Below, piece after piece: positions 161-18,563 of a stretch of 20,169 nt of DNA. Both the position numbers and the translations under genes were made by a program. This stretch comes from a virus (lineage: Duplodnaviria > Heunggongvirae > Uroviricota > Caudoviricetes). Where the stretch lies: the IMG/VR virus record IMGVR_UViG_2879759574_000001. One strand, 5' to 3'. The notes beneath the pieces were generated by a model that saw only the letters and a program-made list of their open reading frames with translations, did no database searches and had not been told where the DNA came from. The first letter of the stretch is position 1, and each line of letters opens with the position of its first letter.

Positions 161-436
161 GTGGCTTCCATTTCCATCAGATGTCCTTCCTGCTCCGCTA
201 CTGAAGGCGTGGTGCGTAACGGCAAAAGCACTGCCGGACATCAGCGCTATCTCTGCTCTCATTGCCGTAAAACATGGCAACTACAGTTCACTTACACCGC
301 CTCTCAGCCCGGTACGCACCAGAAAATCATTGATATGGCCATGAATGGCGTCGGATGCCGCGCCAGTGCACGCATTATGGGCGTTGGCCTCAACACGGTT
401 TTCCGTCACTTAAAAAACTCAGGCCGCAGTCGGTAA
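161..436 (+). CDS. insA: IS1 InsA (91 aa, GTG start)
   Basis: [43 protein letters not shown]... with zinc-finger CxxC...CxxC and HTH, typical InsA. Confidence 0.85.
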
Positions 437-858
437 CCTCGCGCATACAACCGGGCAGTGATGTGATTGTCTGCGCTGAAATGGACGAACAGTGGGGCTA
501 CGTCGGTGCTAAATCACGTCAGCGCTGGCTGTTTTACGCGTATGACAGGATACGGAGGACGGTTGTGGCGCACGTCTTCGGTGAACGCACTCTGGCCACA
601 CTGGAGCGTCTTCTGAGCCTGCTGTCGGCCTTTGAGGTCGTGGTATGGATGACGGATGGCTGGCCGCTGTATGAATCACGCCTGAAGGGAAAGCTGCACG
701 TTATCAGCAAGCGTTACACTCAGCGCATTGAGCGACATAATCTGAATCTGAGACAACATCTGGCAAGGCTGGGACGGAAGTCACTGTCGTTCTCAAAATC
801 GGTGGAGCTGCATGACAAGGTCATCGGGCATTATCTGAACATAAAACACTATCAGTAA
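355..858 (+). CDS. insB: IS1 InsB' frame (expressed as InsAB' transposase by -1 frameshift at the A6C motif)
   Basis: ORF ...[21 protein letters not shown]...[52 protein letters not shown] overlapping insA in the -1 frame; TTAAAAAACTC at 410-420. Confidence 0.8.
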
Positions 859-880
859 GTTGGAGTCATTACCCAAGTAA

Positions 881-905
881 ATAAAAACCCGCTCAACAGC
901 GGGTT
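881..905 (-). terminator. rho-independent terminator (tR'-like) downstream of the Q-like gene
   Basis: On the minus strand AACCCGC-TGTTGA-GCGGGTT followed by TTTAT; lies about 45 nt downstream of the predicted promoter at 952-980. Confidence 0.55.
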
Positions 906-951
906 CGTGAAAATTATCAACGGCAGACATACAAAGCCCATCGTTGAGAAA

Positions 952-980
952 ATCTTATCCATGTTTTTTGAAAAATGCAA
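952..980 (-). promoter_or_regulatory. sigma70-like promoter immediately downstream of Q (pR'-like late promoter candidate)
   Basis: Minus strand reads TTGCAT-17 nt-TAAGAT (plus-strand ATGCAA at 975-980, ATCTTA at 952-957); position between Q stop and a terminator mirrors the lambdoid pR'/qut/tR' arrangement. Confidence 0.4.
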
Positions 981-1011
981 GCTTCATGTCGCCATCTTCG
1001 GCGAAAATCAC

Positions 1012-1764
1012 TTATCTCGTCACCTTTCTCAATTGTGTTTCAGCATATGCTTCTTCCTGCCAGCACTTTGTTACTAGTTTATCAATTACGTCTGCATATC
1101 CTTTGTACCACTGATAATCAGTCAGGTCTGGAACCAGCTTCTGGACATGACGTCGTGCCAGTGTAGTTGGTAAACGGCTAAACCGGTTTCCATTGCAACG
1201 CCCACAAATCTTATAAACAGGCGTGCCATGAAGCCGGGTCCTTTTTTCATCCAGGACAATACCTTTACCCTTACACCCTCTGCACGCTGTGCTGACTTCT
1301 CCCTTACCATGACAATGCTGACATAGTTCCTTCACCCACTCTTCCTTGATAACAGATTCCCCGCTTCTGGAGTGTTTCACCACCTCGCGCAATACATTAT
1401 GAAATCCAGTACCAGCACAATGCTCACAGCGAGCCTTACTTGCCGCAGACCTAGAATAATCAGCAAAGGCAAAATTCACAAGGTAAGGAATGATCTGTAG
1501 CCGGGTTTCTTCACTCAATTTATTCAATGTCGGGTTATCCAGTGCCATCGCGTAATTGAGCAGACCTTCAATCGCAAACTGAGGATCCTGAACACCAACT
1601 TTTGCCAGGAATAAGGCAAACCCAAGCGGTGCTTTCGACTGCACCATCCCCTGCGCAGCCATCACATCCGTAATCGTTAAACCACCAGAGCCTGTCGCCG
1701 GTGCGTCATCGCTCAGTTTTGGAGATTTCGGGGAGTAATATTTCGGTAAGGCTTCAAGGTTCAT
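1012..1764 (-). CDS. lambdoid antitermination protein Q-like (250 aa, QuuQ/YdfT-like)
   Basis: 250-aa ORF with Cys clusters (CEHCAGTG, CQHCHGKG, CRGCKGKG, CGRCNG); length, zinc-binding motifs and position before a pR'-like promoter match Q-type antiterminators of Qin-like prophages; from memory, not searched. Confidence 0.5.
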   Translation of the reverse strand: MNLEALPKYYSPKSPKLSDDAPATGSGGLTITDVMAAQGMVQSKAPLGFALFLAKVGVQDPQFAIEGLLNYAMALDNPTLNKLSEETRLQIIPYLVNFAFADYSRSAASKARCEHCAGTGFHNVLREVVKHSRSGESVIKEEWVKELCQHCHGKGEVSTACRGCKGKGIVLDEKRTRLHGTPVYKICGRCNGNRFSRLPTTLARRHVQKLVPDLTDYQWYKGYADVIDKLVTKCWQEEAYAETQLRKVTR

Positions 1765-1824
1765 GCTCGTTCTCCACTTACGCCAGTACGCCTATTGCCA
1801 GCGCACGATCGATAAAACGAAATA

Positions 1825-2730
1825 TCAGCTCCAGCTGGGAACCATACTTCTCTTCAAATGCCACGGTATCCGCATGCAGCTCGTCGTGATGCTTTCTGCA
1901 CAAAGGCAACACAAAGAGGTCATGCGCTTTTGTACCCATTCCCCCTGACCGTGGCCTATCAGGTGGAGGGGATCATCAGCAGGCTTTCCACAACATGCAC
2001 ACGGCTGTGTCTTAACCCAGCGTGTGTACTTTTCATTAACCCAGCGGCGACGTTTTGGGCGTAACATAAAAGACTCCGGCGACTCCGGATCCACTTTCAG
2101 CGCCAGCACCTTTTTCACCTTATCCTGGATGATGCTGGTGGCAGGAACCGAAGGCACAAGGTCACTTTCCCGGGTGACAGACGGCACAACAGGCTTCGGT
2201 AATCTCAGTGCCTTACGGGCTGCACTTTCCGGTAAGGCATCCGCCAGGTCATTACGAATCAGCCACCAGCACAGTTCCGGCATTGTCACAACGTGACTAT
2301 CATCAAAACCGAGATCCCGACGCACAACAGACAACACCCAGCGGGCACAGTTATCCGTTGCCATTGATTCCAGCCGTTCCGTGAACTGATCGCGCAGCTG
2401 GTTATCGCAGTGCCAGCACAGACGGATTGCGCCCGGCGCGTGTCGCATTGTTGTCATGTTCTCGCTGTGCCAGTCGGAATGAGGCCACTGGCAGCCTTTT
2501 TCACGAAGTAACCAGCTTTCAAGACATTCCACGCCACCAGCACGACGGATCACTGCCTCATTGCGGAACACGGCCCGAACGTCAGGATCATCCGCCAGCG
2601 GTTGTGATGCCGCCGGAACAGCACCACTGGCGAAAGATGAATAACGTTCCGGCTCAGGCTCCAGCAGGACACGCCCCTGCATAAACAGGGGCATCAGCTC
2701 TGAACCTGGTCTGAACAATACGATCCCCAT
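1825..2730 (-). CDS. DUF968 (YdfU-like) prophage protein
   Basis: 301-aa ORF directly upstream of the Q-like gene as ydfU is in Qin-type prophages; C-terminal Cys/His-rich segment (CACCGKP...HLIGHGQ) consistent with DUF968; the C-terminal tail may be frameshifted. Confidence 0.4.
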   Translation of the reverse strand: MGIVLFRPGSELMPLFMQGRVLLEPEPERYSSFASGAVPAASQPLADDPDVRAVFRNEAVIRRAGGVECLESWLLREKGCQWPHSDWHSENMTTMRHAPGAIRLCWHCDNQLRDQFTERLESMATDNCARWVLSVVRRDLGFDDSHVVTMPELCWWLIRNDLADALPESAARKALRLPKPVVPSVTRESDLVPSVPATSIIQDKVKKVLALKVDPESPESFMLRPKRRRWVNEKYTRWVKTQPCACCGKPADDPLHLIGHGQGEWVQKRMTSLCCLCAESITTSCMRIPWHLKRSMVPSWS

Positions 2731-2771
2731 ACGCGGGCAATTTCAGGGGCAGTAGTGCTCTCACGGTCACC

Positions 2772-2975
2772 TCAATGAACGGTATCGAGCAGCTTTAACA
2801 GCTCAGGGAATCGGGATTCGAAGAAATGCGGCTGCGTCTCACGCGGATTTGCGGGACTGGTGATATTCTTGCCGAACATGCAGCCTTTCGCTGTCAGCGA
2901 CCAGAATTTTTTGATGTTGTTAATCGCTGTACGGCTGTATCGTTCGCGCTGTTCGACGATCCCCAGCTTCGCCAT
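2772..2975 (-). CDS. hypothetical 67-aa protein (possibly the displaced C-terminal segment of the upstream KilA-N gene)
   Basis: ORF only; sits in a different frame immediately downstream of the KilA-N ORF, whose own tail looks non-protein-like. Confidence 0.25.
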   Translation of the reverse strand: MAKLGIVEQRERYSRTAINNIKKFWSLTAKGCMFGKNITSPANPRETQPHFFESRFPELLKLLDTVH

Positions 2976-3031
2976 CTGGTGATATGCCTGATTAGCCGTA
3001 AGGCGGATACCATACTGCTTCAGCAGTGCAC

Positions 3032-3568
3032 TCAGTGACAGCGTGGGCGGCTTGAGCCATCAGGCGCGTCAGCAGGAGCATCAATGGCATAGCGCGGTGC
3101 CAGATTCGGTAAGCCAACAGCCTCCTGGAGTTTCTGACAGGCTCCAAGCACTGAAGAGTTAGACAGGTTTAATTCCCGGCGCATAAAGTCCAGCAGAATC
3201 ACACCAGCCTGCATCTTGTCAGCAGCCTGTCCGGATAATTTTTCCGGTGCACTGGTTACCATGTCGAAAGTACGGATCACCTTCAGATGGAATGACGGGC
3301 TGATCCACATTGCATAGGCATACACCAGTTCTTTGCAGACATACGTCCCTTGGTTATTTCCGCCACGAATAACGTTAACTGGTTCTATATTGACCGAGTT
3401 GCAAATCTGCAACTCGCTTATTAAACGTTCAGTTTGCTCATTGCGGAGCCAGAATGCAGGCTTATGCTTATCCAGAGAACCAGCAGCCCTGTGCAGATCG
3501 TTCAGGCTGTAACGCCCATAAGCATCACGACGAACTTCAATTCCATCAATAACCATCAGATTATTCAT
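3032..3568 (-). CDS. KilA-N domain protein (Roi/antirepressor-like)
   Basis: N-terminus MNNLMVIDGIEVRRDAYGRYSLNDLHRAAG...KPAFWLRNEQTERLI...YAYAMWISPSFHLKVIRTFD fits the KilA-N DNA-binding domain signature. Confidence 0.5.
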   Translation of the reverse strand: MNNLMVIDGIEVRRDAYGRYSLNDLHRAAGSLDKHKPAFWLRNEQTERLISELQICNSVNIEPVNVIRGGNNQGTYVCKELVYAYAMWISPSFHLKVIRTFDMVTSAPEKLSGQAADKMQAGVILLDFMRRELNLSNSSVLGACQKLQEAVGLPNLAPRYAIDAPADAPDGSSRPRCH

Positions 3569-3587
3569 ACTTCGTTTCTCCTCTTAA

Positions 3588-3977
3588 TCAGGCTGCTGCA
3601 CCCGCCGGTTTCTCGTACTTACTGATAGTGATCTCGACCTTCCCTTCCGGGATAACCGGTCCCCACTCCACCAGCATTCTTTTCACCTGACTGTCGTCTT
3701 CCCACACACCCGCGTGGGTCAGGGCGTCAAACAGCGCCTTGTTATAGTTGTTCAGATCGCGGATCCGGTTATCCGGAGGAAACAACACGATCTCCACTGA
3801 AGCAGGTGCCGACGTTGGTTTTGGCAGACGACGTAACTGCTCAACTATTGCTGCACACGCCGCGCTCTGGAATTTGCGCCCCGCTGCGCTTATCAGGCTC
3901 TTACCAGCAAACGCCCCTTTGTTGGGGTGTCGCCAGTACGTGTTCACGCTGGGCGGAAAAGGCAGTATTAGCTTCAT
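3588..3977 (-). CDS. rusA: RusA-family Holliday junction resolvase
   Basis: LPFPPSVNTYWRH...RDLNNYNKALFDALTHAGVWEDDSQV matches the RusA motif pattern (LPWPPS.N.YYRH...RDLDN..KA.FDALT.AG.W.DD.QV); start overlaps upstream stop (ATGA). Confidence 0.85.
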   Translation of the reverse strand: MKLILPFPPSVNTYWRHPNKGAFAGKSLISAAGRKFQSAACAAIVEQLRRLPKPTSAPASVEIVLFPPDNRIRDLNNYNKALFDALTHAGVWEDDSQVKRMLVEWGPVIPEGKVEITISKYEKPAGAAA

Positions 3978-4300
3978 ACTTTCAGGCCCCTCTCATGTAA
4001 CCAGTGGGCTGCACGCAGCTTGGCGTTTTCCTCACCGGCAAGCAGTGAGCGGATAATCCCGACCGCCTCGCTGTCGTCGTCCTTCACCGCGGTATGAAGA
4101 GTGATACCACGGGCCACACCACGCTTTATCGTGATGACGCCTTTTTTCTCCAGTGCTCTAAGATGCTCCACCGCTGCATTCACTGAACGGTATCCCAGCA
4201 TGGTTGCCACCTCCTGATTGGTTGGCGGGAAGCCACGTTCTTTCTGGTAAGAAATCAGCATATCCAGCACCTGCTGCTGGCATTGAGTTAACGTCGTCAT
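3974..4300 (-). CDS. LexA N-terminal DNA-binding-domain-like protein without S24 peptidase domain (108 aa)
   Basis: LTQCQQQVLDMLISYQKERGFPPTNQEVATMLGYRSVNAAVEHLRALEKKGVITIKRGVARGITL aligns at roughly 40 percent identity to my recollection of the E. coli LexA N-terminus ([65 protein letters not shown]); protein ends about 40 aa later with no Ser/Lys protease domain. Confidence 0.6.
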   Translation of the reverse strand: MTTLTQCQQQVLDMLISYQKERGFPPTNQEVATMLGYRSVNAAVEHLRALEKKGVITIKRGVARGITLHTAVKDDDSEAVGIIRSLLAGEENAKLRAAHWLHERGLKV

Positions 4301-4950
4301 GCCGCCATCTCCCTGACAAGTTTTTCTGCCTGCTGGCGAACTTGCGCCAGAAAGGCCTCACCACATGCCTCAAGTTCATCGCGCCCGATGTAGCTGATTG
4401 CCGGTCCCTTCCAGGTCTTGTCGAAAACGGCAATAGCACCAGCGAAGAAAGCACCGGTTGGCACCTGCTTCTCGTCTTTCGGGATAAACCAGGCAGGCAG
4501 TTCAAAACCAATACGCCCGCGAATAAAAGCAATATGATCCGCATCTTCCGGCCACCACACTTCGCTGGTGGCAGCTTTGATCAGGAAAACATAGCGCCCG
4601 CCCTTATCACGCATGGCACTGGCATGTTTCATGATGTAACGCATGCCGGTGATGTATTGCCCCTCATGCTGACTGGCGCGGCTGTATGGAGGATTTCCAA
4701 AGGCAGCACCTTTAAGCTCCGCAAGACGTTCTGACCAGTCATGCGCCAGCGCGTTGTCTTCCGCCGTGTAATACGCGGCACATTTGGCGTTATCACCGTC
4801 AGTAAACAGATCCAGAACAAACGGGCCAAACAGGGTGTTAATTCCCCAGAAAATGTTGTCCGGTGTGCGCCACTGATCGCCCACTTCCTTCAGTTCATGG
4901 GCTGGTTTGTTTCGCAACTCCACCAGCGCCTGGCAATATTTATTACTCAT
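4297..4950 (-). CDS. phage N6-adenine DNA methyltransferase (Dam family)
   Basis: FGNPPYS motif (NPPY catalytic signature), QWRTPDNIFWG N-terminal motif typical of phage Dam; preferred start is ATG at 4950 (MSNKYCQ), overlapping the upstream stop (TAATG); the track start at 4983 is a GTG. Confidence 0.75.
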   Translation of the reverse strand: MSNKYCQALVELRNKPAHELKEVGDQWRTPDNIFWGINTLFGPFVLDLFTDGDNAKCAAYYTAEDNALAHDWSERLAELKGAAFGNPPYSRASQHEGQYITGMRYIMKHASAMRDKGGRYVFLIKAATSEVWWPEDADHIAFIRGRIGFELPAWFIPKDEKQVPTGAFFAGAIAVFDKTWKGPAISYIGRDELEACGEAFLAQVRQQAEKLVREMAA

Positions 4951-5438
4951 TAAGCCCCCACGTAATTCCCTGACAGATACCACTCATCACCCGATACAGC
5001 GCGCTTGCTGCTTTTCCGTAAGCACCGCTCACGACGCGCCAGAAAATTGTTTCGTTCTGGCTGGGAGTGGCTTTCACGGAATGCCGCCATCCACACCGTT
5101 GCAGCACGACGGTATAAGCCCCTGGACTCCAGTTCTTCAGCCTGGCGGGTCAGGCACAAAATCACCCGGGGATCGTTAGTGCCGACATAGAAATTGCGCA
5201 CAGGTCTGGTTTCTCGAACTGATTGTGGTCCCGGTTCCTGCGCTCTCTCAGTCAGGCGCGGGAAATGTCTGCGTGTATCTCCTTCACAACGGTGAGCCAC
5301 ACGCCCACTCTGACGTAACTTGCTTGCAGACTGCAGAACGCGCTGCCGTGAGTAACCTGCAAAAGCATCCGCAATGTCTCCGGAAGTACACCCCGGATGG
5401 GCTTCAATGAATTTCTGAACGTCATTCAAAAGACTCAT
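4950..5438 (-). CDS. YfdN-like protein with C-terminal PerC-like motif (163 aa)
   Basis: Start set at ATG 5438 (MSLLNDVQKF...); the longer track ORF has a low-complexity N-extension overlapping the rep gene. C-terminal AEELESRGLYRRAATVWMAAF shares the PerC-type motif with the ORF at 9181-9462. Confidence 0.45.
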   Translation of the reverse strand: MSLLNDVQKFIEAHPGCTSGDIADAFAGYSRQRVLQSASKLRQSGRVAHRCEGDTRRHFPRLTERAQEPGPQSVRETRPVRNFYVGTNDPRVILCLTRQAEELESRGLYRRAATVWMAAFRESHSQPERNNFLARRERCLRKSSKRAVSGDEWYLSGNYVGA

Positions 5439-6006
5439 GCTCACCCCTGAATCCTGCCGGGATCTGGCTGTAGTCCACGTTGTCGTAACTGGCTTTGAAG
5501 TACGGGTCTTCACGTTTTTCTGTGTGCGTGCAGACGGACGGCGATAAGCGCAGGGAAAGCTCATCCCATTTTTCCCGCAACTTCGACGGGCTGAGCACGT
5601 TACGGCACCAGAACGGATCGCGGCTGACGCGGCTGTACATCTCGCAGATTTGTTTGTGAGTACGGCCATCCTGTACACACATCAGGCGAATTTCGTTTGC
5701 CCAGGCTGTCCAGTTCGGTTCTTTGGGACGAACCACCTCGCCGTCACATTCGGCAGCCTGCTCGTACAGGGCGATGATTTTTTTCCAGAGCCACTGTGCG
5801 CAGGTCAAATCATCCTGCGTCCCCCACTGGCGCTTTTTAGGGCTGAATACAACCGCATCAGGATGGCGAGTTAAAAAATCCTGTTCAGCCGTCTGCGTGT
5901 CCGGTTGCGAAGCGTCCGGACGAGAAGGTTTTTTATCTGACGGATCATGTTTTGATTTTACTGACGGATCCCCGCCAGATTCTGACGGGTGAAAACCCGC
6001 TTTTTT
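5422..6006 (-). pseudogene. 3' portion of phage replication-initiation gene, separated from its 5' portion (13478-13860) by IS66
   Basis: Frame continues in phase from 13860 across the 8-bp duplication: ...SKSGKKA | GFHPSESGGDPSVKSKHDPSDKK...; the track start at 6021 is a TTG inside the IS66 end. Confidence 0.65.
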
Positions 6007-6043
6007 GTAAGCGTGCAGCAAGAACCGTATTGACGGGGATGTG

Positions 6044-7580
6044 TTATTCAGTCGGCAGTGCTACGCGCCAGGGGAGCAGTTCGCCGACCCGGTTTATCGG
6101 CCAGTCGGCTATGACGTCAAGTACATAGCGGAGGTAGCTTTCTGGCTCCACTCCGTTCAGTTTGCACGTCCCGATCAGGCTGTACAGCAGCGCTCCCCGC
6201 TCTCCTCCATGATCCGAACCGAAGAACAGGTAGTTTTTGCGGCCCAGACTGACCATCCGCAACGCATTTTCAGCGATGTTATTGTCCGCCTCAGCCCAGC
6301 CATCATCTGCATAGTACGTCAGCGCCGGCCACTGGTTCAGGGCGTATGCGAACGCTTTCGCCAGTTCTGAGTGTCGCGACAGGGTTTTCATCTTTTCACG
6401 CAGCCAGCTTTCCAGGGATTTCAGCAGCGGTTTCGTTTTCAACTGACGTTCGGCAAGGCGCTGCTCCGCCGTCATTCCCCTTATCTCTGCCTCGATGGCG
6501 TACAGTTCGCCGATCCGTTTCAGCGCTTCCTCCGTCAGGGCTGACGGGGTGCGAACGTGCACATCGTGGATTTTACGGCGGGCGTGAGCCCAACAGGCGG
6601 CTTCCGTTATCCGGCCATCCCGGTACAGCTCGTTGAACCCGGCGTATGCATCCGCCTGCAGTACACCACTGAACCCCGCAAGATGGGTCTGCGGATGGAT
6701 GCCTTTTCTGTCCGGGCTGTAAGCGAACCACACCGCCGGCGCCAGCGTTGACCCGGCGTTACGGTCGTCACGAACGTAGGTCCATAACCGCCCGGTCTTC
6801 GTTTTCTTATTGCCTGGCAACAGCACCGGGACAGGCGTGTCATCAGCATGGAGCTTACCGTCAGTCAGCACATAGTCCTGAAGCGCTTCTTCCAGCGGTG
6901 ACAGTAGCCGGCAGCATGCATCCACCCAGCCCGACAGCAGTGAACGACTCAGCTCCACGCCCTGGCGGCCGTACATTTCAGACTGGCGGTACAGCGGGGT
7001 GTGCTCTGCATACTTTGAGATCAGCACGCGGGCCAGCAGCCCCGGTCCTGCGATACCCCGCTCGATGGGCCGTGAAGGCGCGGGGCCTGCACGATGGCAT
7101 CGCACTGAGTACAGGCATGCTTTTCACGTACAGTCCGGATAACCCGGAAGACGCTGCGCATCAACTCCAGCTGTTCGGCGGCATCCTCACCCGGATAGCT
7201 CAGTGAGCCTCCACATTCCGGGCAGCATGACGCTGCCGGCAGCAGCCGTTTTTCATCGCGGGGGAGTGATTCGGGAACGGTTTGCGGGTGCGGGTTTGAC
7301 GCAGCGGGCGCTGCACGGCCGGGTCGTCAACCCGACCGGTAAGGGTATCACTTTCTTTCTGAAGTGCCTTCAGGTCAGCTTCCATCTGTGCGATACGACG
7401 GGAGACTTTTTCGGAGCGGCTGCCGAAGTTCATCCGGCGCAGCTTATCCAGCTGTGCCTGCAGATGGTCTATTTCGCGTTCACGCTCGTTCAGCTTTTCC
7501 AGCAGGGCACGGTTCAGCGCCTCCTGTTCGGCAAGGAGACGTTTCAGTGCATTGATATCGTCAGGAAGTGAGCTGCTCAT
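6044..7580 (-). pseudogene. IS66 tnpC (transposase) disrupted by two 1-bp deletions
   Basis: Split into ORFs 7200-7580 and 6044-7105; compared with intact copy 2, one G/C is missing in the homopolymer run at 7273-7275 and one in the run at 7082-7085. Confidence 0.8.
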
Positions 7581-7628
7581 ACCGGGTATATTACCAGGCT
7601 CATTCAGCGTCGACCAGGATAAAGAGGC

Positions 7629-7976
7629 TTACAACATAGTCAGGGACGTAAGCAGTCTTTTAGGCTGCCGCCAGTCGATACCTTCAAGGAGCATCGCCAG
7701 CTGTGCCGGTGTGAGGAACACTTTGCCATCCCGGGCTGACGGCCAGGCGAAGCGGCCGCGCTCCAGCCGTTTGGTCAGCAGACACAGTCCATCGCCGGTA
7801 GACCAGAGGAGCTTTACCTGACTGCCATTACGCCCACGGAAGATAAAAACGTGACCTGACATCGGATCGTCTTTCAGCGTCGTCTGCACCTTTGCCGCCA
7901 GGCCGTTGAAGCCATTTCTCATATCGGTGATACCGGCAACCAGCCAAATTTTGGTCCCGGAAGGTAACGGGATCAT
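7629..7976 (-). CDS. IS66 TnpB (Orf2), 115 aa
   Basis: Identical protein to ORF 14329-14676; typical IS66 orf2 position with ATGA overlap to tnpA. Confidence 0.85.
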   Translation of the reverse strand: MIPLPSGTKIWLVAGITDMRNGFNGLAAKVQTTLKDDPMSGHVFIFRGRNGSQVKLLWSTGDGLCLLTKRLERGRFAWPSARDGKVFLTPAQLAMLLEGIDWRQPKRLLTSLTML

Positions 7977-8374
7977 CGCTTCAGTTCCTGTATCAGCAGA
8001 GTCAGGAGCTTTTCGCTGACATTGCCATTGAAGCGGAGCGTCCCGTGCCGGAACGTTACCTCACAGCTGATACTGAGGGTTTCCGGATCCTCTGCGAGCG
8101 ATTCTGGCTGTTCGGCAGCTGCATCGAGAGTCACAGGAAGTAGCTGGGGGCTCTCTGAAGAAGGTAATAGCAGCTTTCCCTCGCGCCATTGTTGTCGCCA
8201 TTTGAACAACAGATTGGCGTTAATGCCATTTTCAAGAGCAAGTTTTGAGATGGATATCCCGGGTTCACAGGAGGCAGCAACGAGCTGCTGTTTAAATTCG
8301 GGAGGATAATTAGGGCAGCCTTTTCGCCTGCCGGGATTCACATTTTTCTGCATATCTGACACTTTGGTTCCCAC
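7973..8374 (-). CDS. IS66 TnpA (Orf1), 133 aa, intact in this copy
   Basis: 133-aa ORF; the copy-2 counterpart is broken into 80-aa and 78-aa ORFs by a 1-bp deletion. Confidence 0.8.
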   Translation of the reverse strand: MGTKVSDMQKNVNPGRRKGCPNYPPEFKQQLVAASCEPGISISKLALENGINANLLFKWRQQWREGKLLLPSSESPQLLPVTLDAAAEQPESLAEDPETLSISCEVTFRHGTLRFNGNVSEKLLTLLIQELKR

Positions 8375-8465
8375 TACTTATTTGGTGGACACCACTTTGT
8401 CTAATTCGTCAGATTCTGACCAGACGGTTCAGGCTGTACGCTTACTTTCCAATGGGCACTCATGT

Positions 8466-8909
8466 TTATACGCTGACCTTACAATCAATCACCGCTTTTA
8501 AATTTTCAGCATTGCTTCCCTGACGCTTCCACGCGCTGTAAATATCTTTATCCCACGCTTTACCAGCTTTTGTTTGATAGCCTGCTTCATTGATCCGTTC
8601 AGCTATCACACGCCCATTATCAAATCCCTGTTGGATGGTATCGGCAATGATCTTTATAACTGCCGTTTCGTTATATGGCTTTGGTGGGATGTTCGGCTTT
8701 CCGGCAATAAGCGACGCAGCGGCTTTTTCCATGCGCTCCACCAGCCCAAGCATTCGTGAATCAATAGACTTTTCCGGCTGTCCCAGCTTCATGCGAATCG
8801 CATCAACAAGCCAGGAGGTTTTATCCCCTCCAGAAGCGAGAACAGACCGATTAAACTCATCCTGCAATTCAGATGGGATGCGGAACGCGATCAGATTAGA
8901 TTTGCTCAT
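8466..8909 (-). CDS. hypothetical DNA-binding protein, putative ribbon-helix-helix N-terminus
   Basis: MSKSNLIAFRIPSELQDEFNRSVLASGGDKTSWLVDAIRMKL has a strand-helix-helix pattern like Arc/CopG-type RHH; divergent from the iteron array and PerC-like gene; start ambiguous (ATG 8921 or 8909), weak RBS. Confidence 0.35.
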   Translation of the reverse strand: MSKSNLIAFRIPSELQDEFNRSVLASGGDKTSWLVDAIRMKLGQPEKSIDSRMLGLVERMEKAAASLIAGKPNIPPKPYNETAVIKIIADTIQQGFDNGRVIAERINEAGYQTKAGKAWDKDIYSAWKRQGSNAENLKAVIDCKVSV

Positions 8910-8940
8910 TGCAAAGACCATATCAGTGAGTAATATCCAT

Positions 8941-8970
8941 ACAGTATACCACTGTATAACACTGTTATAC
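8941..8970. repeat. three tandem ~10-bp repeats ACAGTATAC / CACTGTATAA / CACTGTTATAC in the promoter region of the RHH-like gene
   Basis: Direct reading of sequence; half-site-like CTGT/ACAG elements but not a canonical CTGT-N8-ACAG LexA box. Confidence 0.3.
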
Positions 8971-9022
8971 GCTCAAATATCAGCCAGAAAATAACGGACC
9001 AATCACAAAGCTATCGCTGTGT

Positions 9023-9145
9023 TGTTGGTTCAGAGCTGGGCTGTGTTGGTTCAAAATGAGTTGATGTTGGTTCAATATTTTAGAAAAAACATAATAAAAA
9101 CAACGATCTTTACAAATTGAACCAACTGAACCAACTGAACCAACA
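9023..9145. repeat. iteron array: 3 direct TGTTGGTTCA repeats at 21-bp spacing, AT-rich spacer, then 3 tandem inverted copies TGAACCAAC
   Basis: Direct copies at 9023-9032, 9044-9053, 9065-9074; inverted copies at 9118-9126, 9127-9135, 9136-9144; the inverted set overlaps the -35 region of a TATAAT (9162-9167) upstream of the PerC-like gene. Confidence 0.6.
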
Positions 9146-9180
9146 CCTTTTTGCTTATCTATATAATCTGAGAGGCAGAA

Positions 9181-9462
9181 ATGATAAGGGACAGGAAAGC
9201 TGAAGAGCTGGAGTCAAAAGGGCTATACCGGAGAGCTGCCGCACGATGGATGGAAGTCATGCTGTTATGCACCGAGGACGATGATCGGGAATGGATAAAG
9301 CGCCGCCGTGAAACGTGTCTGGAGAACGTGAAGCGCCCGCCCGTGAAGGTTGAGGAATTTGGCGACCTGCATAAAGCTGTTACCGAAACGCAACACCGCA
9401 TGGGGATAGCGCAACCGAACGGTAACGCCTTCCGGTTAAATGGCGGCAAGAGGCAAAGGTAG
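9181..9462 (+). CDS. PerC-family transcriptional activator-like protein (93 aa)
   Basis: MIRDRKAEELESKGLYRRAAARWMEVML...RRRETCLENV matches the PerC/Pch signature as I recall it; good RBS (GAGAGG) before ATG. Confidence 0.5.
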   Translation: MIRDRKAEELESKGLYRRAAARWMEVMLLCTEDDDREWIKRRRETCLENVKRPPVKVEEFGDLHKAVTETQHRMGIAQPNGNAFRLNGGKRQR

Positions 9463-9758
9463 ACCACCAGAGGGAAATCATCCTCTGGCTGGCGGTTTCT
9501 GGTATTTCGGGACAAGTACGCGCGCGCGTAGCACCCAATCGGTGAGGAAATAGCGGCGACCTGAATGGTCAAAATCACAACGCAGCTATCCCCGTAAGCA
9601 GCGCTTAACGGAATAGCAGTAACCTGAATCCAGTGGGGAGGGGGTAGTCAAATCTCTACAGCCCTGACTATCCGGGACTGCCCGCCCATCGTTTTTTTAT
9701 ACCCGCGAAAAATGAAATTTAATCCGGGCGTGTTTCATCCTTCCAGAGGGTATGACGT

Positions 9759-9944
9759 ATGACACCACGCGAAATAGCCTTATTGACCATCGCCAAACTT
9801 GAGCACGGAGGCCACCAGCTTACACAGGCAGATCAACGGGAGATAGAACGATCAGTTAATGCCGATATAGCCCGGCGCGACAGGTTCCGCGAAATGATGC
9901 GAGCACCTGCCTACCAGTGGAAGAAGCCAGCGCCGCGCAGGTAG
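9759..9944 (+). CDS. hypothetical 61-aa basic protein
   Basis: ORF with possible RBS AGAGGG upstream; no recognisable motif. Confidence 0.25.
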   Translation: MTPREIALLTIAKLEHGGHQLTQADQREIERSVNADIARRDRFREMMRAPAYQWKKPAPRR

Positions 9945-10064
9945 ATATGGGATTATTCCACATGTACCTTATGCGTATTAAGCAAATTTCCTTTATTCAC
10001 CTTTACAGAATTGTGAGTACGTCAGTATCGTTATCCTTCCGATTCGCATTTATTCAGGATTTGC

Positions 10065-10607
10065 ATGTACCAGCTAAAGATAACCATCCGAGACAGCAAA
10101 CCACCTATATGGCGGCGTGTGCTGGTTCCAGAGCAAATCCCCTTTAGTAAACTTCATGCCGTGATCCAGTTAGCTTTTGGCTGGAATGACGAACACCTGT
10201 ATATGTTCGAGAAAGGGCGTAAAGGTGATCCAGGTAGCGAGTATCGCGTATGGGGTGAGGATGAAAGCATGGGTAACGCGGCAATCACGCCACTATGGGC
10301 GGCGCTCCAGAATGAGGGTGACAAGCTGGTTTACACGTATGACTTTGGCGACTGGTGGGATTGCGTCATTGTGCTGGAGAAGCAAACACACGATACGAGT
10401 AATCAGCCCATTAGCTGCCTGCGTGGGAAAGGCACCACCCCGGCGGAAAACTCAGGCGGCTTGCATGGTTACAATGAATTGCTATTACAGGCCAGAGAGT
10501 CTGATAATCCTGAGCAGGCCGAGATCCACAATTTCCTGATGCTGGATATTGAACGCCGGGTTTACGACCTGAGCCGCATCAACGACAGATTGCAGGCTAT
10601 TAACTGA
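10065..10607 (+). CDS. pRiA4b ORF-3-like family protein (180 aa)
   Basis: N-terminus MYQLKITIRDSKPPIWRRVLVPEQIPFSKLHAVIQLAFGWNDEHLYMF matches the characteristic start of the pRiA4b ORF-3-like family (YxLKxTL...PPIWRR..VP...F.DLH..IQ...GW...HL.F); RBS AGGA present. Confidence 0.6.
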   Translation: MYQLKITIRDSKPPIWRRVLVPEQIPFSKLHAVIQLAFGWNDEHLYMFEKGRKGDPGSEYRVWGEDESMGNAAITPLWAALQNEGDKLVYTYDFGDWWDCVIVLEKQTHDTSNQPISCLRGKGTTPAENSGGLHGYNELLLQARESDNPEQAEIHNFLMLDIERRVYDLSRINDRLQAIN

Positions 10608-10959
10608 CCCGCATGTATTCACCTGATATTGCGTTGTCAGCGCCGCCAGTATCGCGCATAACAGCGCACTGACCGGGTAAACCGTAGCGCACGACCGTTG
10701 CGTTAGTATCACCGCCGCGCCGTATCTGGCGCGATTCATACACTGTCACCCGCTCAAGCAGTCCACCAGCAACCATGCTTTCCAGTGTGCGCCGGGTTGA
10801 TTCGAGCTGGTGACGCTTATCGAACGACACCATGCCATGAAGCAGGTAGGCCACACCCGACACATCGAACGGCGGCGCACCAATCTCACCAGTCACCCAT
10901 TCGAGGTTATCCGGTTCAAAGTAGCTAAGTATCTCTTTTTTGCGACTGGTCATTCTCAT
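10600..10959 (-). CDS. hypothetical 119-aa protein, convergent with and overlapping the pRiA4b-like gene by 8 nt
   Basis: ORF with RBS AAGGA; segment RTLESMVAGGLLERV could be a winged-helix recognition element, but that is unverified. Confidence 0.3.
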   Translation of the reverse strand: MRMTSRKKEILSYFEPDNLEWVTGEIGAPPFDVSGVAYLLHGMVSFDKRHQLESTRRTLESMVAGGLLERVTVYESRQIRRGGDTNATVVRYGLPGQCAVMRDTGGADNAISGEYMRVS

Positions 10960-11187
10960 GGCTGGCTGATTCCTTATTGTGGGATAGCACTATCATACAA
11001 TAAGTGGGTTAAAGGGAGAGCGTTACCGCCTGATATGCTGTATGAATAACAACCAAATTTCAGGGGCGGAAAAAGATATGGGGGTACTTTTGGGGGTATC
11101 TATAAAAAATGAACAATAAAAAAGGCAACAAAAACAAAGCTTATCGCCTATGTGTATTGTTCCCATTATCCCATTTAAATCAATAAG

Positions 11188-11691
11188 TTACACATCATTA
11201 GTACGTTCCTTATTTCTTGACTGGGACAAATTTGGGACCGATGGGTTCAGAATCGAGTCTATTTGCCGTGCGTGTTCGGTAAGGTGATTAGGTGCGAGGT
11301 GAGCATATCGACGAACCATTTCGATAGACTCCCAGCCTCCCATTTCCTGTAACACTGATAACGGGACTCCGGCTTGAACCAGCCAACTTGCCCAGGTGTG
11401 TCTCAAGTCGTGAAATCTGAAATCATCAATACCTGCTCGTCTCAGCGCCGCTTTCCAGGCTGTGTTTGCGTCATACCGCATCTTCCTGACTGTTGGCGCT
11501 TTCGTTCCGTCTGGTTTGGTACAGCTTTCCTTATACACAAATACCCAACGGTGATGATTCCCGATTTGTTTTTTCAATACGCGACATGCAGTATCATTCA
11601 GCGCAACGCCAATTGCGCGGTTTGATTTACTCTCTTCCGGGTTTATCCATGCCACCCGGTGAGGTGTACTGGCAATAGCGGACACTACCAT
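11188..11691 (-). pseudogene. tyrosine recombinase (phage integrase), C-terminal catalytic half only
   Basis: Contains HDLRHTWAS (His-x-x-Arg box) and VRRYAHL (catalytic Tyr); the N-terminal roughly 200 aa expected for an integrase are absent and the ORF abuts an IS3-family fragment. Confidence 0.75.
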
Positions 11692-12221: not shown

Positions 12222-12293
12222 TGAAGTGGCACACTGAATTTGGCCACCTGAACAGAGGTGATATGCTCACCTCAGAACAACACAGGTGCTCCA

Positions 12294-13861
<1,568 letters not shown>

Positions 13862-13931
13862 TAAGCGTACAGCCTGAACCGTCTGGTCAGAATCTGACGA
13901 ATTAGACAAAGTGGTGTCCACCAAATAAGTA

Positions 13932-14332
13932 GTGGGAACCAAAGTGTCAGATATGCAGAAAAATGTGAATCCCGGCAGGCGAAAAGGCTGCCCTAATTAT
14001 CCTCCCGAATTTAAACAGCAGCTCGTTGCTGCCTCCTGTGAACCCGGGATATCCATCTCAAAACTTGCTCTGAAAATGGCATTAACGCCAATCTGTTGTT
14101 CAAATGGCGACAACAATGGCGCGAGGGAAAGCTGCTATTACCTTCTTCAGAGAGCCCCCAGCTACTTCCTGTGACTCTCGATGCAGCTGCCGAACAGCCA
14201 GAATCGCTCGCAGAGGATCCGGAAACCCTCAGTATCAGCTGTGAGGTAACGTTCCGGCACGGGACGCTCCGCTTCAATGGCAATGTCAGCGAAAAGCTCC
14301 TGACTCTGCTGATACAGGAACTGAAGCGATGA
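13932..14332 (+). pseudogene. IS66 tnpA with 1-bp deletion
   Basis: CTTGCTCTGAAAATGG here versus CTTGCTCTTGAAAATGG in copy 1; ORF split into 13932-14174 and 14096-14332. Confidence 0.75.
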
Positions 14333-14676
14333 TCCCGTTACCTTCCGGGACCAAAATTTGGCTGGTTGCCGGTATCACCGATATGAGAAATGGCTTCAAC
14401 GGCCTGGCGGCAAAGGTGCAGACGACGCTGAAAGACGATCCGATGTCAGGTCACGTTTTTATCTTCCGTGGGCGTAATGGCAGTCAGGTAAAGCTCCTCT
14501 GGTCTACCGGCGATGGACTGTGTCTGCTGACCAAACGGCTGGAGCGCGGCCGCTTCGCCTGGCCGTCAGCCCGGGATGGCAAAGTGTTCCTCACACCGGC
14601 ACAGCTGGCGATGCTCCTTGAAGGTATCGACTGGCGGCAGCCTAAAAGACTGCTTACGTCCCTGACTATGTTGTAA
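14329..14676 (+). CDS. IS66 TnpB (Orf2), 115 aa
   Basis: Identical to 7629-7976. Confidence 0.85.
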   Translation: MIPLPSGTKIWLVAGITDMRNGFNGLAAKVQTTLKDDPMSGHVFIFRGRNGSQVKLLWSTGDGLCLLTKRLERGRFAWPSARDGKVFLTPAQLAMLLEGIDWRQPKRLLTSLTML

Positions 14677-14724
14677 GCCTCTTTATCCTGGTCGACGCTG
14701 AATGAGCCTGGTAATATACCCGGT

Positions 14725-16263
14725 ATGAGCAGCTCACTTCCTGACGATATCAATGCACTGAAACGTCTCCTTGCCGAACAGGAGGCGCTGAACCGTGCCC
14801 TGCTGGAAAAGCTGAACGAGCGTGAACGCGAAATAGACCATCTGCAGGCACAGCTGGATAAGCTGCGCCGGATGAACTTCGGCAGCCGCTCCGAAAAAGT
14901 CTCCCGTCGTATCGCACAGATGGAAGCTGACCTGAAGGCACTTCAGAAAGAAAGTGATACCCTTACCGGTCGGGTTGACGACCCGGCCGTGCAGCGCCCG
15001 CTGCGTCAAACCCGCACCCGCAAACCGTTCCCCGAATCACTCCCCCGCGATGAAAAACGGCTGCTGCCGGCAGCGTCATGCTGCCCGGAATGTGGAGGCT
15101 CACTGAGCTATCCGGGTGAGGATGCCGCCGAACAGCTGGAGTTGATGCGCAGCGTCTTCCGGGTTATCCGGACTGTACGTGAAAAGCATGCCTGTACTCA
15201 GTGCGATGCCATCGTGCAGGCCCCCGCGCCTTCACGGCCCATCGAGCGGGGTATCGCAGGACCGGGGCTGCTGGCCCGCGTGCTGATCTCAAAGTATGCA
15301 GAGCACACCCCGCTGTACCGCCAGTCTGAAATGTACGGCCGCCAGGGCGTGGAGCTGAGTCGTTCACTGCTGTCGGGCTGGGTGGATGCATGCTGCCGGC
15401 TACTGTCACCGCTGGAAGAAGCGCTTCAGGACTATGTGCTGACTGACGGTAAGCTCCATGCTGATGACACGCCTGTCCCGGTGCTGTTGCCAGGCAATAA
15501 GAAAACGAAGACCGGGCGGTTATGGACCTACGTTCGTGACGACCGTAACGCCGGGTCAACGCTGGCGCCGGCGGTGTGGTTCGCTTACAGCCCGGACAGA
15601 AAAGGCATCCATCCGCAGACCCATCTTGCGGGGTTCAGTGGTGTACTGCAGGCGGATGCATACGCCGGGTTCAACGAGCTGTACCGGGATGGCCGGATAA
15701 CGGAAGCCGCCTGTTGGGCTCACGCCCGCCGTAAAATCCACGATGTGCACGTTCGCACCCCGTCAGCCCTGACGGAGGAAGCGCTGAAACGGATCGGCGA
15801 ACTGTACGCCATCGAGGCAGAGATAAGGGGAATGACGGCGGAGCAGCGCCTTGCCGAACGTCAGTTGAAAACGAAACCGCTGCTGAAATCCCTGGAAAGC
15901 TGGCTGCGTGAAAAGATGAAAACCCTGTCGCGACACTCAGAACTGGCGAAAGCGTTCGCATACGCCCTGAACCAGTGGCCGGCGCTGACGTACTATGCAG
16001 ATGATGGCTGGGCTGAGGCGGACAATAACATCGCTGAAAATGCGTTGCGGATGGTCAGTCTGGGCCGCAAAAACTACCTGTTCTTCGGTTCGGATCATGG
16101 AGGAGAGCGGGGAGCGCTGCTGTACAGCCTGATCGGGACGTGCAAACTGAACGGAGTGGAGCCAGAAAGCTACCTCCGCTATGTACTTGACGTCATAGCC
16201 GACTGGCCGATAAACCGGGTCGGCGAACTGCTCCCCTGGCGCGTAGCACTGCCGACTGAATAA
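14725..16263 (+). CDS. IS66 TnpC transposase, intact (512 aa)
   Basis: Uninterrupted 512-aa ORF with N-terminal coiled-coil/leucine-zipper region and CxxC...CxxC zinc motif (CCPECGG...CTQCDA). Confidence 0.85.
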
Positions 16264-16300
16264 CACATCCCCGTCAATACGGTTCTTGCTGCACGCTTAC

Positions 16301-16775: not shown

Positions 16776-16796
16776 AGAACCCGCCCAGCGGGTTCT
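16776..16796 (-). terminator. 9-bp GC-rich stem-loop overlapping the stop codon of the 201-aa gene (weak terminator candidate)
   Basis: AGAACCCGC-CCA-GCGGGTTCT; no clear U-tract afterwards. Confidence 0.3.
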
Positions 16797-17400
16797 AAAG
16801 TGTTTTAATGATTGTCGTGATAATTAATTGGCTCATCATTTTTTGGTCTGGTATAGTTATGGACCACTTTATATTCTTTAGGCTGTTATGTTTTTTATTG
16901 ACCTTAAGCTCTCTCTTTGCTTCAGAGATAATATCGTCTAGTAATACTTTTAATTTATCAAGTCTTGACTTGTGGGCATCTATCAACTCTATACTATCAA
17001 ACTCCCATTGTATAAATAGATTTTCTTCATTTTCAATGAATGAACGGATTTTATCCCCACACTCTTCTGTTAAGAATAATGAAGATAGCTCACCTATTCT
17101 ACTGAGTTTTTCAAGCTCATTAGAGAAAGATTTGCTAAGGATTTCATTTTCTTCTTTTGATTTGTAACTAAAGTAGGTTGGGAATTGTGAAGCGTGATGT
17201 AACTCATGTTTATACCAATAGTCAGCTGTGTTTTTTAGAAGATAAACACAGTCAACTAATTGCGTATACAAATCTATTCTTTTGTCCCACCATTTTTCTT
17301 TATAATAACGGCCGAGTGCATATCGCGCAGTTAAGTAAGCTGCGATTGAGCCTGTAACAAGTCCGATAATTACCTTTGATATAAGGTCATGCCAATCCAT
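16795..17400 (-). CDS. hypothetical membrane-anchored protein (201 aa, one N-terminal TM helix, AT-rich)
   Basis: ORF MDWHDLISKVIIGLVTGSIAAYLTARYAL... has a single hydrophobic helix followed by a charged, Lys/Glu-rich soluble region; codon usage and base composition are clearly more AT-rich than neighbours; RBS AGGA. Confidence 0.5.
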   Translation of the reverse strand: MDWHDLISKVIIGLVTGSIAAYLTARYALGRYYKEKWWDKRIDLYTQLVDCVYLLKNTADYWYKHELHHASQFPTYFSYKSKEENEILSKSFSNELEKLSRIGELSSLFLTEECGDKIRSFIENEENLFIQWEFDSIELIDAHKSRLDKLKVLLDDIISEAKRELKVNKKHNSLKNIKWSITIPDQKMMSQLIITTIIKTL

Positions 17401-17888: not shown

Positions 17889-18563
17889 TTAGGCCTTTAT
17901 TTTGTATCTTCTTGGTTTTCCCGAGAAAATCACAGTGCCAATTATAGAGCAATTACCGTTAATCTTAATGTAGGGCTCAGGCCAGTTTGGGTGTAATGCT
18001 TTGAGATAACGCTGTGTTCCATCTTCTATCAATCGCTTGAAGGTGATTTCGCCTGTATCGTGCATCAACGCAATAACGTCGTCACCGTGGCAAGCAGGGA
18101 CTTCAGGATCAACAAAAATCATGTCTCCCGGACGGTACTCATCAATCATTGAATCACCAATCACCCGCAAGATATAAGTCATTTCGCCACAGGGTACAGG
18201 GCAGGGATAAGTTTCTGCTGTGCTCAAATCAACCTCAGAATAGCCAACTTCTTTCCATGCTCCGGCCTGTACCCATGATATGACAGGGACTAACGTTATT
18301 TGTTTGTTAGTGATTGAAACATCAGGTTTTTTTGTGATGTTCGTTGTCTGGTGTTCTTGATCGAGCCATCCGATAGGCAAGTCGAAACATTTTTCAATGT
18401 GTCGTGCCATGCTGTCACCGATATTTTTAGTAGCACCATCTCCCATAAACCTGCTGGTCTGGGTTGGCTCGCGATCAATCATAGTGGCAAAGGAAGAATT
18501 CCCGCCAACACCATCTCTCAGTTTTCTGGCGTTAGACCGCCGGATGTCATGGATTGTTTTCAT
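17889..18563 (-). CDS. CI-like phage repressor with C-terminal S24 (LexA-type) peptidase domain
   Basis: C-terminal half has VIGDSM (catalytic Ser) and FKRL (Lys) with ...GDMIFVDPE...; N-terminus resembles phage CI HTH domains; divergent from a Cro-like gene. Confidence 0.8.
   Translation of the reverse strand: MKTIHDIRRSNARKLRDGVGGNSSFATMIDREPTQTSRFMGDGATKNIGDSMARHIEKCFDLPIGWLDQEHQTTNITKKPDVSITNKQITLVPVISWVQAGAWKEVGYSEVDLSTAETYPCPVPCGEMTYILRVIGDSMIDEYRPGDMIFVDPEVPACHGDDVIALMHDTGEITFKRLIEDGTQRYLKALHPNWPEPYIKINGNCSIIGTVIFSGKPRRYKIKA

Follow-up and report, generated by a model that had tools for sequence, protein, structure and literature searches.

The stretch of DNA analyzed here (20,169 nt, referred to below as the window) carries two genes of the PerC family, which are probably unrelated copies that belong to two separate mobile elements and became neighbors through an inversion between copies of an IS66-family element. 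One gene, encoding a protein of 93 aa, lies in the remnant of a PICI-type satellite, while the other, yfdN-like, belongs to a lambdoid prophage. The identity, family and context of both genes are close to certain; the mode of action that we propose for them is put forward more tentatively. The central facts are already known or annotated, i.e. both genes are of the PerC family, one is yfdN and the other encodes a protein characterized in 2025. The only new leads are the duplicated origin found beside perC and the graded likeness of the proteins to the ANR family.

Family assignment of the two proteins

The two genes are located as follows:

9181-9462, plus strand: perC-family gene (93 aa, 11.0 kDa, pI 9.6)
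4950-5438, minus strand: yfdN-like gene (162 aa, 18.5 kDa)

The earlier note had claimed that both genes are of the PerC family and that their products have a motif in common, and it had called for a profile search, which bore the claim out. Profile PF06069 (PerC; gathering score 22.6 bits) matched the 93-aa protein with 104.5 bits (E 3.7e-30; residues 1-85, profile positions 1-85 of 90) and the YfdN-like protein with 38.1 bits (E 1.8e-9; residues 98-151, profile positions 5-58 of 90). The match of the 93-aa protein is full-length and includes the C-terminal half of the profile; that of the YfdN-like protein is confined to the N-terminal core, and the C-terminal half is not matched. Direct BLASTP aligned the two proteins with 43% identity over 56 aa (E 4e-11), and the motif quoted in the earlier note falls within a set of columns (A7, L10, E11, G14, R17, R18, A19, W23, R36, R43 and C46) that did not vary when both proteins were compared with EPEC PerC, a homologue of Pch length (104 aa) and two further sequences. 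The profile matches, the alignment and the invariant columns together indicate that the common motif is no chance resemblance. Both genes are already assigned to the PerC family in RefSeq.

A profile search of 1.84 billion representative sequences yielded 370 clusters (at 50% identity) of PerC proteins, which shows that this is a narrow, well-delimited family. The top match of the representative search, P0265 (1346 aa), was discarded as spurious, since this protein has tandem repeats and owes its score to the sum of 20 weak matches. A sequence search of the PDB found no relative of the 93-aa or of the YfdN-like protein, PADLOC found no defense system match in perC and its neighbors, and Rfam gave no matches in the whole window.

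WP_000617443.1, encoded within the phage-inducible chromosomal island (PICI) EcCIMP1 of E. coli MP1 (L013, 9535-9816), has exactly the sequence of the 93-aa protein (100% identity). We equated this protein, via RefSeq, with EcCIMP1_025, because it is the product of the only PerC-family gene annotated within the published EcCIMP1 coordinates. The same protein is also annotated in an O111:H8 strain (L021). Expressed from a plasmid in a heterologous host, Citrobacter rodentium, EcCIMP1_025 silenced a LEE1-lux fusion in a dose-dependent manner, whereas EPEC perC activated the same reporter, and the authors propose that EcCIMP1_025 is really an ANR-type repressor (PMC11773190). LEE1 is reported not to respond to the PerC-like genes of EcCIEDL933 or EcCICFT073 (cited in PMC11773190). 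In MG1655 carrying ler::lacZ, activation of ler by 4-fold or more was seen only with the group-1 Pch proteins (PchA, PchB and PchC); the effect of PchE stayed below 2-fold, and PchD was without effect (PMC5931665). Membership of the PerC family is thus not predictive of activation, given that PchD and PchE are inert or weak and that a protein identical to that of the window silences LEE1.

The likeness to the ANR family is graded. The ANR model of NCBIfam (NF033650) matched the 93-aa protein with 31.1 bits (E 1.6e-7; profile positions 7-52 of 54), i.e. 0.9 bits short of the cutoff of 32. The scores were 26.1 bits for the 95-aa allele of the L020 island, 23.4 for the YfdN-like protein, 18.2 for EPEC PerC and 16.2 for an 89-aa homologue of EDL933; the 104-aa Pch-length protein gave no match. 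The model was matched (E < 1e-3) by 20 of the 24 clade members, and for a homologue 78% identical to the 93-aa protein (P0018), NCBI uses the name “ANR family transcriptional regulator”.

In the AlphaFold2 (AF2) model of the 93-aa protein (pLDDT 80.6), helices were predicted at residues 5-13, 16-29, 33-50 and 61-73, the three N-terminal ones with a pLDDT of about 87-92. BFVD proteins of 60-61 aa, one of them named ANR, superposed on this model at 0.8-1.0 Å over 43-47 residues (the predicted ANR protein at 0.8 Å over 43), such structure matches of small helical folds being unspecific. ANR proteins are defined by a size below 10 kDa and three conserved α-helices (PMC4983702); the 93-aa protein is predicted to have three N-terminal helices, but its mass is 11.0 kDa and it carries a fourth helix and a C-terminal tail. 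The three-helix core resembles ANR proteins (Aar of EAEC; Rnr of EPEC and C. rodentium) in matching their profile, and the repressive effect on LEE resembles that of Rnr, whereas ANRs lack the PerC-type C-terminal extension (helix 61-73, with the motif MGI..P.G.AFR).

EPEC PerC (pMAR2, WP_000405638.1) and the group-1 Pch proteins of EHEC are of the same Pfam family and of similar size, they share with the 93-aa protein the motif A-x2-LE-x2-G-x-[YW]-RRA-x3-W...R...C, and all are encoded on mobile elements; identity is 37% to EPEC PerC and 36% to the 104-aa Pch-length protein. In contrast, their effect on LEE1 is the opposite (PMC11773190), and the ANR profile gives 18.2 bits or no match with them, compared with 31.1 bits for the 93-aa protein. 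EPEC perC, moreover, is part of the perABC operon, which includes an AraC-type gene.

Rnr, a member of the ANR family, binds both H-NS and Ler and is a repressor of LEE (PMC10148876). For Pch, the published mode of action is relief of the silencing exerted by H-NS; the protein did not co-precipitate with H-NS or Ler, and the authors favor competitive DNA binding (PMC4764244), so that action through protein-protein contacts alone cannot be taken as given for PerC-type proteins.

The satellite remnant and its putative second origin

The segment surrounding perC consists of the following features:

8466-8921, minus strand: orf151 (151 aa), divergent, adjoining the IS66 cut as the final PICI gene
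9024-9144: iteron cluster, with three copies of GTTGGTTCA, an AT-rich spacer and three copies of TGAACCAAC
9162-9167, plus strand: −10-like TATAAT (perfect match, read from the sequence), 13 nt before the perC ATG
9170-9175, plus strand: Shine-Dalgarno GAGAGG (read from the sequence), just 5′ of the perC ATG
9759-9944, plus strand: orf61, a conserved companion of perC
10065-10607, plus strand: gene for a PRiA4_ORF3 family protein (PF07929, E 1.1e-42)
10600-10959, minus strand: orf119, a conserved companion of perC
11188-11691, minus strand: tyrosine integrase gene, reduced to a C-terminal fragment by an IS3-family element

The window retains no more than the right end of a PICI, from 8446 to about 11700, in the order orf151, origin-like iteron cluster, perC, orf61, PRiA4_ORF3 and orf119. 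The full PICI set (integrase, AlpA-type regulator, primase/initiator and origin together) was not found within the window, the remnant lacking the integrase, AlpA and primase of the island; the primase is missing because IS66 cuts the island at 8445. At the DNA level, the integrase fragment at 11188-11691 is 97-98% identical to the integrase genes carried by the Shigella phages SfII, SfIV, SfI and SfV.

In complete E. coli genomes, the perC segment occupies the far end of satellite-type islands located by tRNA-Thr (proA-thrW). Besides an integrase and a primase, these islands encode an AlpA-type regulator, an antirepressor and an Ash-family protein; L001, L002, L013 and L020 are complete examples that have this perC module. 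The segment comprising perC and the iterons was matched at ≥80% coverage in 214 of the 5426 complete E. coli genomes and in 634 at any coverage (4-12%). The genes orf61, PRiA4_ORF3 and orf119 follow perC in the loci of E. coli, Kluyvera, Enterobacter, Shimwellia and Atlantibacter. In the elements of the last four genera perC stands directly after ssb, and in one of them (L004) a P4-like primase gene is located 5′ of ssb.

EcCIMP1 encodes the same 93-aa protein followed by the same orf61, PRiA4_ORF3 and orf119 (PMC11773190), and the iterons upstream are the same as those of the window from position 9044 on. It differs in carrying an orf61 paralogue and an AlpA-like gene where the window, L001 and L020 have orf151; it is not truncated by IS66 and it resides in another host, at another genomic location.

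The protein encoded by orf151 is ribbon-helix-helix-like at its N terminus, as judged by eye; it matched phrog_30270 weakly and had no Pfam, NCBIfam or PADLOC match. The gene lies beside perC in the E. coli islands L001, L002 and L020 and is absent from EcCIMP1 and from the other genera. Its exact sequence has a UniRef name ending in _SHIDY.

The iterons of the cluster are arranged in two sets. The copies of GTTGGTTCA start at 9024, 9045 and 9066 (21-bp spacing), and those of TGAACCAAC follow in tandem, inverted, at 9118-9144; the spacer between the sets (9075-9117) is 43 bp long with 16% GC. All six copies of the iteron that the window contains fall within 9024-9144, compared with 0.15 expected, and in none of 100 shuffled sequences was this number reached. 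The same structure occurs directly 3′ of the TOPRIM/DUF927 primase gene in L013 (18392-18513) and L020 (780-894). Alignment revealed that the perC-side and primase-side clusters are oppositely oriented and share about 50 identical nt.

The origin of PICIs was described as two iteron sets flanking an AT-rich region, 3′ of the initiator gene (Fillol-Salom et al. 2018, PMC6092414). Both the position and the architecture of the primase-side clusters agree with this description, which points to the cluster beside perC as a second origin copy, in inverted orientation. This copy has the iteron sets and the AT-rich spacer of a PICI origin, but it abuts the start of perC and is not placed immediately 3′ of an initiator gene. 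In intact islands it lies about 8 kb from the primase, and its role as an origin is predicted from the sequence. Neither PMC11773190 nor PMC6092414 mentions a second inverted origin copy, and the former does not mention the iterons.

Analogous inverted iteron sets of different sequence were found 5′ of ssb-perC in the elements of the other genera: in L004 they lie between primase and ssb, and in L007 just 5′ of ssb. In island L002, half of the iteron cluster is lost and perC is intact.

The earlier note had placed perC under an iteron-controlled promoter. The iterons are real, but a consensus scan of 8850-9800 for σ70 promoters and terminators found no sites. The TATAAT at 9162-9167 appears to be too near the Shine-Dalgarno sequence for an obvious promoter and lacks a matching −35 hexamer. 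With no σ70 promoter recognized and this hexamer only 13 nt from the ATG, the proposed promoter is unproven. Binding of the iterons by the orf151 product, as an operator, was also considered and set aside, because EcCIMP1 and the primase-proximal origin copies keep the iterons in the absence of orf151. Coupling of perC expression to the initiator of the satellite is possible but speculative.

The yfdN-like gene, its prophage and the IS66 inversion

The prophage parts and the IS66-family elements that separate them are as follows:

4297-4950, minus strand: phage Dam methyltransferase gene (PF05869, E 1.1e-45; TIGR01712, E 1.7e-76), directly 3′ of the yfdN-like gene
5422-6006, minus strand: C-terminal part of the O-like replication gene, whose stop codon overlaps the yfdN-like start
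6007-8445, minus strand: IS66-family copy A, transposase frameshifted, left flank GCTTTTTT (5999-6006)
13478-13860, plus strand: N-terminal part of the O-like replication gene, fused upstream to IS911 sequence
13861-16300, plus strand: IS66-family copy B, with an intact 512-aa transposase, left flank AAAAAAGC (13853-13860)

The start of the yfdN-like gene is most likely the ATG at 5438, which is preceded by a Shine-Dalgarno sequence (AGGGG) and produces a 17-nt overlap with the O-like gene at its stop codon; a mechanically predicted ORF of 242 aa reaching 5678 was rejected. The protein matched phrog_1324 (E 9.5e-78) and is 97-98% identical to the commonest alleles. RefSeq labels it “yfdN: PerC family transcriptional regulator”, and the gene occurs in 2547 of the 5426 complete E. 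coli genomes (47%). The 162-aa protein is 97% identical to the common 164-aa allele, to which RefSeq gives the label yfdN, and corresponds to YfdN of the K-12 cryptic prophage CPS-53 (KpLE1), where Dam likewise follows; we noted no difference of substance. In the literature yfdN was described as “the K12 unique PerC homologue” (PMC5931665).

The earlier note had stated that this copy is fused to an extra N-terminal domain, and structure prediction agrees. The AF2 model (pLDDT 76.4) comprises a winged-helix domain of the helix-helix-helix-strand-strand type (aa 1-60; nt 5259-5438), a disordered linker (aa 63-84) and a PerC/ANR-like three-helix core (aa 90-148; nt 4995-5171). Foldseek related the N-terminal domain to winged helices of the ArsR, MarR and MecI types (about 2 Å over about 60 residues, with weak E values of 0.07-0.2), and PHROGs and NCBIfam gave weak MarR-type matches to the same region. 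Judging from the model, the extra domain most likely binds DNA, with the PerC/ANR module tethered to it.

The placement of the yfdN-like gene in a nin-like operon, also proposed in the earlier note, was confirmed by intact prophages (L014, L016 and L017) that encode a YfdN-like protein identical to that of the window. Their gene order is cI(S24), cro, CP76 (cII-like), orf112, O-like, YfdN-like, Dam, LexA_DNA_bind, RusA, KilA-N, DUF968, Q and holin, with an intact O-like gene (313 aa, HTH_36) preceding the yfdN-like gene. This is the order of a lambdoid early (replication/nin-like) operon, and the same pieces are present in the window in rearranged form. The KilA-N and DUF968 genes of the window are shorter than those of the intact relatives; the prophage retains an intact cI-like repressor gene.

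The rearrangement left a signature. The two IS66 copies are mutually inverted and 99.9% identical, and GCTTTTTT is the reverse complement of AAAAAAGC (an 8-bp duplication). The halves of the O-like gene (13478-13860, plus strand; 6006-5422, minus strand) rejoin in frame across AAAAAAGC. These three observations strongly suggest recombination between inverted IS66 elements, one of which had inserted into the O-like gene. The history of the rearrangement must have been more complex than a single inversion, since only one of the two expected pairs of target duplications could be reconstructed. Copies of IS911 add further rearrangement to this region, in which IS1, IS66 and IS911 elements are abundant.

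As a result, the satellite remnant is now located between the two halves of the prophage. Positions 1-11438 of the window are 100% identical to CP026842.1 (GCA_002950175.1), a chromosome of 4.59 Mb, the contiguous window occurs in no complete E. coli genome, and the chimeric IS911/O-like ORF is not on record. The idea that the two PerC genes form a functional pair was considered and rejected, because of the signature of an IS66 inversion and because the distributions of the genes, which belong to different elements, are independent (47% versus 4-12% of genomes). The pairing of perC and the yfdN-like gene is an accident of rearrangement and not a unit.

Possible roles of the two genes

According to the explanation that we favor, the 93-aa gene is the accessory gene at the end of an EcCIMP1-like PICI of the thrW type. 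The conserved N-terminal 50 residues of its product are predicted to fold into three TPR-like helices, a unit with homology to Aar and Rnr of the ANR anti-activator family. The most likely mode of action would be that the protein modulates silencing complexes of the H-NS/Ler type, or activators of the AraC type, rather than acts by classical sequence-specific activation, and the net effect of this allele would be repression. The 162-aa gene is the YfdN orthologue of a lambdoid prophage, coupled translationally to the O-like gene and followed downstream by Dam, a LexA-like gene, RusA, KilA-N, DUF968 and Q; the winged helix probably brings its PerC/ANR module to specific DNA. The six iterons 5′ of perC represent the second, inverted copy of the satellite origin and not a demonstrated operator.

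Other explanations were weighed against this one. That both genes encode Pch/PerC-type activators of host virulence loci (LEE/ler or equivalent) appears very improbable, even though both proteins match PF06069, the residues of the core motif are all kept in comparison with EPEC PerC (37% identity) and the 104-aa Pch-length protein (36%), related families are labeled “transcriptional activator” in PHROGs, and group-1 Pch (PMC5931665) and EPEC PerC (PMC11773190) do activate LEE1. The dose-dependent silencing of LEE1-lux by the identical protein (PMC11773190) contradicts the view, taken in the earlier note, of the 93-aa protein as an activator of a virulence locus; PchD, PchE and the other PICI PerC-like proteins do not activate ler, and in the YfdN-like protein the second, C-terminal half of the PerC profile is missing. 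The source chromosome, moreover, is likely that of Shigella dysenteriae, as judged from the _SHIDY UniRef name and the crowding of ISs. To our knowledge, this species has no LEE.

Both genes could instead be silent leftovers in this DNA, carried by a truncated satellite and by a prophage shattered by IS1, IS66 and IS911. The island is cut at 8445 and lacks integrase, AlpA and primase, the replication gene of the prophage is split, its KilA-N and DUF968 genes are shorter than those of intact relatives, and no promoter was found 5′ of perC. We nevertheless regard this as rather unlikely, as neither ORF is disrupted, the product of the 93-aa ORF is identical to a protein with activity in an assay, the 162-aa ORF is 97-98% identical to the commonest alleles, the region upstream of perC is conserved with intact islands, and the cI-like repressor gene has survived.

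It is also conceivable, but unlikely, that the PerC/ANR genes serve primarily their own elements, either by counter-silencing or tuning H-NS there or as part of a replication module. Host virulence islands would then be affected only incidentally, and the origin copy would couple perC to the primase/initiator. The location of the genes is consistent with such a role: both adjoin replication functions, the yfdN-like gene overlapping the O-like stop codon and perC directly following ssb in Kluyvera, Enterobacter, Shimwellia and Atlantibacter. A primase and iteron origin (L004) or an iteron cluster (L007) stands just 5′ of ssb, and in E. coli PICIs an inverted origin copy, about 50 nt of which are identical to the primase-proximal origin, abuts perC. 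Furthermore, the perC module is kept across genera irrespective of LEE. On the other hand, the EcCIMP1 paper treats the gene as accessory and leaves the iterons unmentioned (PMC11773190), accessory genes are typically found at the ends of PICIs (PMC6092414), and L002 retains an intact perC with half of its iteron cluster gone.

A bolder variant, to which we assign a low probability, is that PerC-family proteins are replication-coupled factors of mobile elements, switched on by the initiator at the origin copy, and that their target is H-NS-type silencing in the element or in its helper. If this were true, the effects on LEE would be a by-product, and the window allele, the most ANR-like of those compared, would bridge the “activator” PerC and the “anti-activator” ANR proteins as members of one superfamily with opposite outputs.

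Returning to the explanation that we favor, namely two unrelated copies on two mobile elements, the identity of the 93-aa protein with a LEE silencer is a caution that “PerC family” does not mean “virulence activator”. The presence of this protein in an O111:H8 strain and on a probable Shigella chromosome suggests that it may influence virulence regulons controlled by H-NS or AraC-type proteins beyond the commensal strain that served for its characterization. Finally, the inverted origin copy before perC offers a testable idea of how expression of this gene may be tied to induction of the satellite.

Paired origin copies and variation 5′ of perC

In intact PICIs of the EcCIMP1 type, a single iteron/AT-rich origin structure is present as two inverted copies approx. 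8 kb apart, one located directly 3′ of the primase gene and the other directly 5′ of perC, the gene of the 93-aa PerC-family protein. The copies analyzed were as follows:

Window, 9024-9144: iteron/AT-rich origin structure
L013 (PICI EcCIMP1 of E. coli MP1), 18392-18513 and 9851-9978: iteron/AT-rich origin structure
L020 (E. coli island with the same perC module), 780-894 and 9014-9137: iteron/AT-rich origin structure

Alignment of these sequences revealed approx. 50 nt that are identical in all five copies (one from the window and two each from L013 and L020). There is no mention of the second, perC-proximal copy in the PICI papers PMC11773190 and PMC6092414.

A natural deletion variant of the perC-proximal iterons was found in another E. 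coli island with this module (L002, 15520-15576). Direct iteron 3, the AT-rich spacer and the whole inverted set of three iterons have been lost, and the second iteron is joined straight to the Shine-Dalgarno region of perC, which is itself intact.

In EcCIMP1 (L013 10040-10520, minus strand) a paralogue of orf61, a gene found 3′ of perC in the window, is located just 5′ of the perC-proximal iterons, and three GGTATCCA-type repeats lie between this paralogue and a divergent AlpA-like gene. In contrast, the window carries orf151 at this site. The stretch just 5′ of orf151 (8925-8975) contains a series of half-sites resembling ACAGTAT / ATACTGT (CCATACAGTATACCACTGTATAACACTGTTATAC). These half-sites differ from the iterons and could be the operator for the RHH-like orf151 product.

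IS66 and IS911 copies in the window

An IS66-mediated inversion has occurred in the window. The left flanks (5999-6006 and 13853-13860) of the inverted IS66 copies A (6007-8445) and B (13861-16300) have in common, as reverse complement, the 8-bp duplication AAAAAAGC, and the halves of the split O-like replication gene rejoin with the reading frame maintained. On the right side, the flanks TTTCCAAT and CGATATCC mismatch, and therefore at least one further event beyond the inversion must have taken place. Other features of this region are:

12222-12596 and 19795-20169: IS911 copies, in direct orientation
16795-17400, minus strand: 201-aa ORF, function unassigned, with IS66 copy B on one side and the gene for the prophage repressor on the other

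One IS911 copy lies after the prophage gene orf112, the second before the O-like gene. The IS911 copies have created a 413-aa chimeric ORF (12623-13864), in which IS911 OrfB is fused to the O-like N-terminus; no record of this chimera was found in the assembly collection. The site of the 201-aa ORF is a typical moron position, and PADLOC gave no match for this ORF.

perC and its flanks in other genera and strains

The 1346-aa tandem-repeat protein P0265 matched the PerC profile with an E value of 9.4e-34 through 20 weak matches, which fall on the C-terminal half of the profile (DFG..H...M.I.PN...F pattern); this score is probably a summed-score artefact.

In elements of Kluyvera, Enterobacter, Shimwellia and Atlantibacter (L003-L009; e.g. 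L004 4528-5312), perC starts 12 nt 3′ of ssb (end ...DDEDPF), and in L004 the ssb-perC pair is located downstream of a P4-like primase gene. The iteron sets upstream of ssb differ in sequence from that of the window (TATCCCTAC in L004, TGTTGTCTCA in L007); there are two mismatches between the L007 motif and TGTTGGTTCA of the window. The perC-orf61 gap in these genera is approx. 1.3 kb and contains a 203-aa ORF, whereas in the window it is non-coding and only 296 nt long (9463-9758). The latter contains a hairpin (CCAGAGG...CCTCTGG) directly 3′ of the perC stop codon and a T-run near 9693-9699; compared with shuffled sequences, its predicted fold has slightly greater stability (z −2.05), and Rfam gave no match.

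An identical PerC protein is also encoded at the following locus:

L021 (E. coli O111:H8 strain 08-4347), 9138-9419: WP_000617443.1

Here perC is accompanied by orf61, PRiA4_ORF3 and orf119 within a remnant that lacks the primase gene. Serotype O111:H8 is usually LEE-positive.
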